232 nucleotides of DNA from Escherichia coli (GTDB lineage: Bacteria; Pseudomonadota; Gammaproteobacteria; Enterobacterales; Enterobacteriaceae), in assembly GCF_003334405.1 (NCBI RefSeq), contig NZ_QOWM01000074.1; one strand, written 5' to 3'. Both the position numbers and the translations under genes were made by a program. This document shows positions 187-232 of the stretch, in pieces. Within the stretch, counting starts at the first letter, position 1. The number at the start of each line of letters is the position of its first letter. The notes beneath the pieces are model-generated. The model made no database searches. It was not told the origin of the DNA and saw only the letters and a program-made list of their open reading frames with translations.

Positions 187-211
187 CACTGAACAATGAA
201 AGTTGTTCGTG
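187..211 (+). other. GAAA (GNRA) tetraloop hairpin in the spacer
   Basis: GAACAA at 191-196 pairs perfectly with TTGTTC at 203-208 (6 bp). The loop is TGAAAG (197-202), where T197/G202 can form a U-G wobble closing a GAAA tetraloop. The stem extends with C189-G209, A188-T210 and C187-G211, leaving T190 bulged. Confidence 0.55.
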
Positions 212-232
212 AGTCTCTCAAATTTTCGCAAC

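Follow-up and report, generated by a model that had tools for sequence, protein, structure and literature searches.

We put at roughly 85% the probability that the segment at the downstream end of the window is the middle of the leader strand in an extended helix between the two flanks of 23S rRNA, and that it is released by RNase III within the StyR-44 fragment. The window is the whole stretch of DNA that was analysed, 232 nt long, with its positions written as w1 to w232; the segment is w209-232. By leader we mean the spacer just upstream of 23S, and by trailer the sequence just downstream of 23S; minus and plus signs mark positions in leader and trailer, respectively. The 23S processing stem has an outer extension that starts at w161 (-100), and the segment very probably takes a central place in it. 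A preliminary description of this DNA had taken the segment for the possible start of the processing stem. That idea was correct in outline but not in its details: the segment is neither where the stem starts nor where RNase III cuts, and half of it is unpaired or in a local hairpin.

Position of the segment in the rrnG spacer

The window matched, at 100% identity, the spacer that runs from tRNA-Glu to 23S in rrnG of E. coli K-12; the rrnG operon is located between clpB and kgtP. In the rrnG locus (L001), the window corresponds to positions 4501-4732, and the annotated 23S start is at 4761. The window end and the 23S start are separated by 28 nt, in agreement with the earlier estimate of a few tens of nucleotides, and the segment spans -52..-29. 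The letters that had been given for 209-232, GTGAGTCTCTCAAATTTTCGCAAC, were also found at that position. Of the 5,426 complete E. coli genomes, 5,425 contained related copies, with a median of seven sites in each genome, and the 24-mer w209-232 was unchanged in 7/7 of the K-12 rrn operons. The only coding or antisense features in the window were chance ORFs of 20-30 aa, and neither promoter-like nor terminator-like sites were found in the window, the StyR-44 region included. The features of the window are listed here; the leader-trailer pairings among them are thermodynamic predictions for rrnG, with pair probabilities given as P.

1-76, + strand: tRNA-Glu(UUC) gene, gltW of rrnG (ARAGORN; Rfam tRNA, 60.1 bits; RefSeq annotation)
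112-147, + strand: boxB-like hairpin with the core AGACU-GUUA-AGUCU at w123-136 (-8.8 kcal/mol, z -2.6)
150-158, + strand: spacer boxA, UGCUCUUUA, the NusB/NusE site of the antitermination complex (exact consensus match)
154-232, + strand: match to RF01830 (StyR-44), ended by the window end (91.8 bits)
161-171, + strand: outermost 5' strand of the leader-trailer helix, AAUCUG..UCA, with trailer +55..+45 (P 0.81-1.0)
173-182, + strand: 5' strand GCUGAAAAUU, with trailer +43..+34, GAUUUUCAGC (P 0.82-1.0)
187-211, + strand: leader-internal hairpin at a three-way junction (P 0.9-1.0; -9.2 kcal/mol, z -3.1)
214-220, + strand: 5' strand UCUCUCA, with trailer +32..+26, UGAGAGA (P 0.86-1.0)
221-224, + strand: internal loop AAUU between two helices in E. 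coli (pair probability about 0)
225-229, + strand: 5' strand UUCGC, with trailer +25..+21, GCGGA (P 0.92-0.96)
230-232, + strand: junction, then the first bases of a small variable leader hairpin running past the window end

The rrn boxA consensus is UGCUCUUUA (PMC6614797), and both boxB and boxA occur in the leader as well as in the spacer of rrn operons (PMC10250234, PMC6614797). The position of the w112-147 hairpin suggests that it is boxB. Pairing with the trailer is predicted to begin at w161, right beside this boxA, which runs to w163 in its extended form. The segment lies downstream of boxA and is not itself boxA. By analogy with 16S, one would place a spacer boxC in the leader strand with which the helix opens after boxA, hence at w161-182 and not at w209-232.

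The outer leader-trailer helix in E. coli

The rrnG leader and trailer were cofolded with a strand break or a linker standing in for the 2.9 kb of 23S. In these predictions the two flanks form one long interrupted helix. Its inner part consists of 23S helix H1 followed by pairing of -20..-1 with +1..+19, and the outer leader-trailer pairs total about 31 bp. Both the cofold and the partition function place the segment on the trailer in antiparallel orientation, in register with H1 and the RNase III helix. The preliminary description had expected the partner of the segment in the 3' flank of 23S, outside the window; on the full operon, extended complementarity was indeed found there, w214-220 pairing with +32..+26 and w225-229 with +25..+21. 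Trailer-paired bases account for 12 of the 24 bases of the segment, and for these the description of 209-232 as a trailer-pairing segment is supported. It does not hold for the first three bases, GUG at w209-211, which are the 3' base of the local w187-211 hairpin, or for the loop and junction bases w212-213, w221-224 and w230-232. Among the latter, w231-233 pair with w238-240 at a probability of about 0.5. Further, while the segment does belong to the stem, the stem does not start there, since pairing with the trailer begins already at w161, about 50 nt upstream. The RNase III site is outside the segment, the cut falling between -8 and -7, 21 nt beyond the window end.

The seven K-12 operons differ slightly around these helices. 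The trailer partner is GAUGAGAGA in rrnB, C, D and G, and GAUUGAGAGA in rrnA, E and H, one U being different; the extra trailer U in rrnA, rrnE and rrnH makes the UCUCUCA(A) helix 8 bp instead of 7. In rrnG, the trailer partner of UCUCUCA is located at L001 7685-7696. The w230-232 region reads CUCUGAAG in rrnG and rrnD, and is replaced by a longer ACGAUGAUGAAUCG hairpin in the other five operons. A comparison of L001 4733-4746 with positions 364-385 of the rrnB locus (L125) showed that rrnG and rrnD carry CUCUGAAGUGAAAC between the segment and the inner helix, whereas rrnA, B, C, E and H have a longer ACGAUGAUGAAUCGAAAGAAAC mini-hairpin there, a paralogue-specific indel at the helix junction. 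The trailer also has a hairpin of its own, UCAGAACGCAGAAGCGGUCUGA, at +59..+80 (L001 7723-7744), between the outermost leader-trailer pair and the 5S gene. This hairpin sits in the 5' extension of the 9S pre-5S RNA.

The complementarity of the 24-mer to the trailer was compared with chance using RNAduplex and 1000 dinucleotide shuffles of either strand. The 24-mer gave -15.2 kcal/mol with z -0.9, and 16-18% of the shuffles, as well as 20 of 378 genomic background windows, were as good. By itself, then, the trailer complementarity of the 24-mer is no better than chance, and the segment cannot be judged in isolation. For the outer leader, w161-232, against trailer +20..+60, the ddG was -24.3 kcal/mol with z = -5.5, shuffled trailers giving -7.0 +/- 3.1 kcal/mol. 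Non-random complementarity appears only in the context of the whole outer leader.

Conservation of the pairing among Enterobacterales

GTDB genomes were scanned for the 23S 5' end, and the 120 loci obtained yielded 36 distinct leader/trailer pairs. Nineteen enteric leader+linker+trailer sequences were aligned with MAFFT, the alignment not being fitted to any structure. On this alignment the long-range model was 86% paired, versus 42-46% for a slid control. Compensatory changes were seen at 11 pairs, in 36 cells, a level reached by 0 of 500 shuffles. The w225-229 helix, which includes five of the trailer-paired bases of the segment, had compensatory changes at 4 of its 5 pairs. Compensatory support was also found for the inner helix and for the outermost, w161-171, helix, in which two pairs were compensated (U-A to C-G in 3 sequences, A-U to U-A in 7); in the w173-182 helix 87% of the cells were paired across the 19 sequences. 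RNAalifold, run on the same alignment, recovered the inner helix only.

Separate cofolds of about 15 species again placed the equivalent segment on the trailer. The UCUCUC core was on the trailer in 16 of the 19 enteric pairs; the UCUCUCA:UGAGAGA helix was missing from the MFE structures of Ca. Pantoea persica and of two Tatumella operons. Upstream of the segment, GCUGAAAAU (w173-181) was found on the trailer's AUUUUCAGC in essentially all enteric cofolds. At the w225-229 position, Pantoea sp. IMH has AAUGCUUAC:GUGAGCGUU, Xenorhabdus has AAACUCCAA:UUGGGGUUU, and P. asymbiotica has CUG-ACA:UGU-CAG. In Pantoea sp. IMH the equivalent of w221-224 is paired as well, and the two helices merge into a continuous 17 bp. 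A hairpin of 29-66 nt, differing in sequence, was present at the w187-211 position in 16/16 distinct enteric leaders, with z from -2.0 to -6.8.

The w214-220:trailer helix is the weakest link of the long-range model. On the MAFFT alignment UCUCUCA:UGAGAGA was 60% paired, the (GA)n island being out of register because spacer lengths vary, and the helix displayed no covariation because both of its strands are conserved. An alignment-free longest-helix test of w214-220 gave shuffle P values of 0.007-0.76, which are confounded by purine/pyrimidine composition. A GAGAG island was found at the co-linear trailer position in every enteric species, with variable flanks.

Pairing across orders was also compared. 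Enteric outer leaders against enteric trailers gave mean energies of -17.7 to -21.9 kcal/mol, whereas the same leaders against Vibrionales, Alteromonadales and Pasteurellales trailers gave -8.7 kcal/mol (P = 6e-20 versus enteric). It is this between-order contrast that is usable; ranking cognate against non-cognate trailers species by species told nothing within Enterobacterales, whose members have these elements in common, and leaders with long hairpins, such as those of Citrobacter, are truncated by the fixed -115 cut-off of that test. Several of these other lineages had strong outer extensions of their own, for which the cognate trailer ranked first (z -4 to -12). In Vibrionaceae, GAGUCCGGC:GCGGACUC was considered as a positional homologue of GAGUCUCUC:GAGAGAC. 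It was rejected because in Vibrio the internal hairpins have the element on their opposite side; the two are analogous and cannot be aligned.

Some loci from the scan had peculiarities of their own. In Pantoea sp. 1.19 (L017) the 23S 5'-end pattern occurs twice on one strand, at 9882-9901 and 10101-10120, 219 nt apart, which could reflect a local duplication or an assembly artefact. A 3.3-kb contig labelled as a Candidatus Saccharibacteria MAG (L085, CAMJKD010000023.1) carries a 23S with a gammaproteobacterial-type 5' end; the leader and trailer of this contig show no relationship to those of enterics and still form a helix, and the label or the binning may be wrong. The 23S genes of Providencia, Grimontia, Pasteurella atlantica and Photorhabdus asymbiotica (loci L006, L023-L025, L028-L030, L106 and L108) are 3007-3086 nt long, compared with about 2904 nt in E. 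coli, and probably contain intervening sequences.

StyR-44 and the maturation of the 23S flanks

The segment corresponds to model positions 56-79 of RF01830. Full-length StyR-44 matches were found at L001 4654-4753 in rrnG (105.3 bits) and at L125 276-384 in rrnB (122.9 bits), both above the gathering threshold of 54 bits. In rrnG and rrnB alike the 3' end of the match is at -8, the last base before the RNase III cut. In length, the rrnB copy (109 nt) equals the cloned RNA. Since this 3' end and the RNase III cut coincide, we take StyR-44 to be the 5' strand that is excised from the 23S processing stem. At its other end, the model, which begins at w154, starts inside boxA, which points to an RNase III-independent cut or a protection boundary there.

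StyR-44 has been cloned, detected on northern blots and found to be growth-regulated (Chinni et al. 2010, PMC2943607), and together with the strong Rfam scores, including the truncated match in the window, this could suggest a stand-alone small RNA gene acting via the local fold drawn in Rfam, in which w221-229 pair with w173-182 and nothing pairs past 23S. Indeed, when the leader is folded alone its MFE structure is exactly the Rfam structure, at -20.1 kcal/mol for rrnG and -25.4 kcal/mol for rrnB, but with z values of only -1.6 to -2.2. The alignment speaks against the outer stem of that structure, w173-182/w221-229: it was 73% paired with 0 compensatory changes, 500 of 500 column shuffles were as good, as many as 9 of the 19 relatives break it, and the trailer offers its 5' arm a better partner that is conserved. 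The inner hairpin of the Rfam structure was comparatively supported, and the third hairpin is built from bases that the inner helix pairs with the trailer. Moreover, the presumed gene lies inside the rrn transcript with neither promoter nor terminator, it ends at an RNase III cut, and its discoverers themselves allowed that it may be a 'metastable intermediate' in the maturation of rRNA (PMC2943607). We consider such a gene very improbable. In short, membership in the StyR-44 family holds by score, and the consensus structure fails as a description of the precursor. The local fold might instead serve transiently, as a timed switch added to the extended helix rather than replacing it. Here w221-229 (AAUUUUCGC) would mimic the trailer's GAUUUUCAGC and hold GCUGAAAAU until displaced by the real trailer, in Escherichia, Enterobacter and Citrobacter. 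The leader, which alone adopts just this structure, is made about 2.9 kb before the trailer, and the two partners of GCUGAAAAU are mutually exclusive, with the trailer winning by about -24 kcal/mol once present. A switch of this kind is nevertheless unlikely, given that the local pairing has no covariation, that the fold is only marginally better than shuffles, that an A/U-rich 9-mer match easily arises by chance, and that Pantoea IMH, Xenorhabdus, Photorhabdus, Mixta and Dickeya have lost the local partner and kept the trailer partner. On thermodynamic grounds, a transient Rfam-type fold before the trailer exists is plausible in E. coli; the comparative data lend it no support.

A different reading starts from the block GAGUCUCUCAA (w211-221), which is nearly invariant across Enterobacterales while its trailer partner slides, pairing over 5 to 9 bp. 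The block is more conserved than pairing requires. The segment might then be single-stranded, with GAGUCUCUCAA read by sequence, for example by a protein or nuclease of the transcription or assembly machinery in a boxC-like role, and the complementarity incidental, a pyrimidine-rich leader meeting a purine-rich trailer. The chance-level score of the 24-mer, the omission of these pairs by RNAalifold, and the boxB-boxA-boxC set placed upstream of 23S in the literature (PMC10250234) would agree with this. Yet the adjacent w225-229 helix has compensatory changes, the helices on both flanks are supported, the helices of Pantoea sp. IMH fuse into a single 17-bp duplex, and the GAGAG island is kept co-linear in every enteric trailer. 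Nor was a paper naming the GAGUCUCUCAA block found, an exact-sequence literature search returning unrelated eukaryotic primers only. An unpaired, sequence-read segment is thus very unlikely in our view; a sequence-specific role of GAGUCUCUCAA could coexist with pairing. We also give little chance to a combination of three elements, namely GAGUCUCUCAA as a sequence-specific site for a factor of rRNA transcription or assembly, AAUUUUCGC as a trailer mimic holding GCUGAAAAU, and StyR-44 annealed over about 31 bp to the 9S RNA. If it were true, the annealed StyR-44 (100-109 nt) could affect when RNase E processes 5S.

Under the extended-helix reading, which we prefer, the leader would be transcribed first and could fold locally while alone. 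The trailer, emerging about 2.9 kb later, would zip onto it from the inside outward. The inner pairs, -20..-1 with +1..+19, leading into H1, would form first, followed by w225-229 with +21..+25 and w214-220 with +26..+32, and w173-182 and w161-171 would be the last to pair, with +34..+55. The conserved w187-211 hairpin would protrude as a three-way junction. RNase III would then cut the inner helix between -8 and -7 and near +8, and the leader strand upstream of the cut, segment included, would be freed as the fragment of about 100-109 nt that is StyR-44, and then discarded. The thermodynamic and comparative results suggest that the outer pairs form in vivo. They would add stability and help join the 23S ends for 50S assembly, a role that the literature shows for the inner helix only. 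The excised fragment may stay annealed to the 5' extension of 9S pre-5S RNA until it is unwound or degraded. RNase III is known to leave 7 extra nt on the 5' end and 7-8 nt on the 3' end of pre-23S (PMC7261194, PMC8708148). According to a review, pre-23S of rnc mutants retains as many as about 100 additional nt on both sides, which fits the outer boundary at -100, that is, w161.

All of this is known biology, since both the 23S processing stem and StyR-44 as a family have been described before. The 23S leader-trailer helix (Bram, Young & Steitz 1980; Liiv & Remme 1998; both as cited in PMC8708148, PMC8782170 and PMC11404451) is the same helix system in the same transcript. In PMC8782170 the E. 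coli helix is called '~30 bp'. The requirement for 50S formation is known from mutagenesis of the inner helix only (Liiv & Remme 1998, as cited in later papers). A helix of about 30 bp corresponds to 23S +8 to -20, i.e., to the inner helix; the segment, in contrast, is in the outer extension, which is interrupted by loops and a three-way junction and lies outside the RNase III binding site. The 1980-81 papers on the 23S flanks are said to have drawn an extended structure already. Rfam types StyR-44 as a gene with a purely local fold, whereas we find an excised strand whose drawn outer stem lacks comparative support.

The 16S leader-trailer helix with its boxA-boxC arrangement (Young & Steitz 1978; Warner et al. 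2023, PMC10250234) follows the same logic with a different rRNA and a different sequence: boxA, then the leader strand of a long helix, an RNase III cut, and leader hairpins branching off. For the 16S helix, mutagenesis shows a need for at least 17 bp, and for structure rather than sequence; mutagenesis comparable to this was not found in the literature for the outer 23S pairs. StyR-215 (PMC2943607), found in the screen that yielded StyR-44, is likewise an rrn-derived 'small RNA' with seven copies, processed from a longer precursor, but it comes from the 16S leader, upstream of 16S, and not from the 23S leader.

The residual interest of these results lies in the unexplained over-conservation of GAGUCUCUCAA and in the curation of StyR-44, which concerns the 5' strand cut from the 23S stem, with a drawn outer stem that the comparative data do not support. 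In Enterobacterales, the 23S helix appears to reach -100, well past the ~30 bp usually quoted, where it adjoins the spacer boxA. A helix reaching boxA agrees with the notion of a leader strand handed to the trailer by the antitermination complex.
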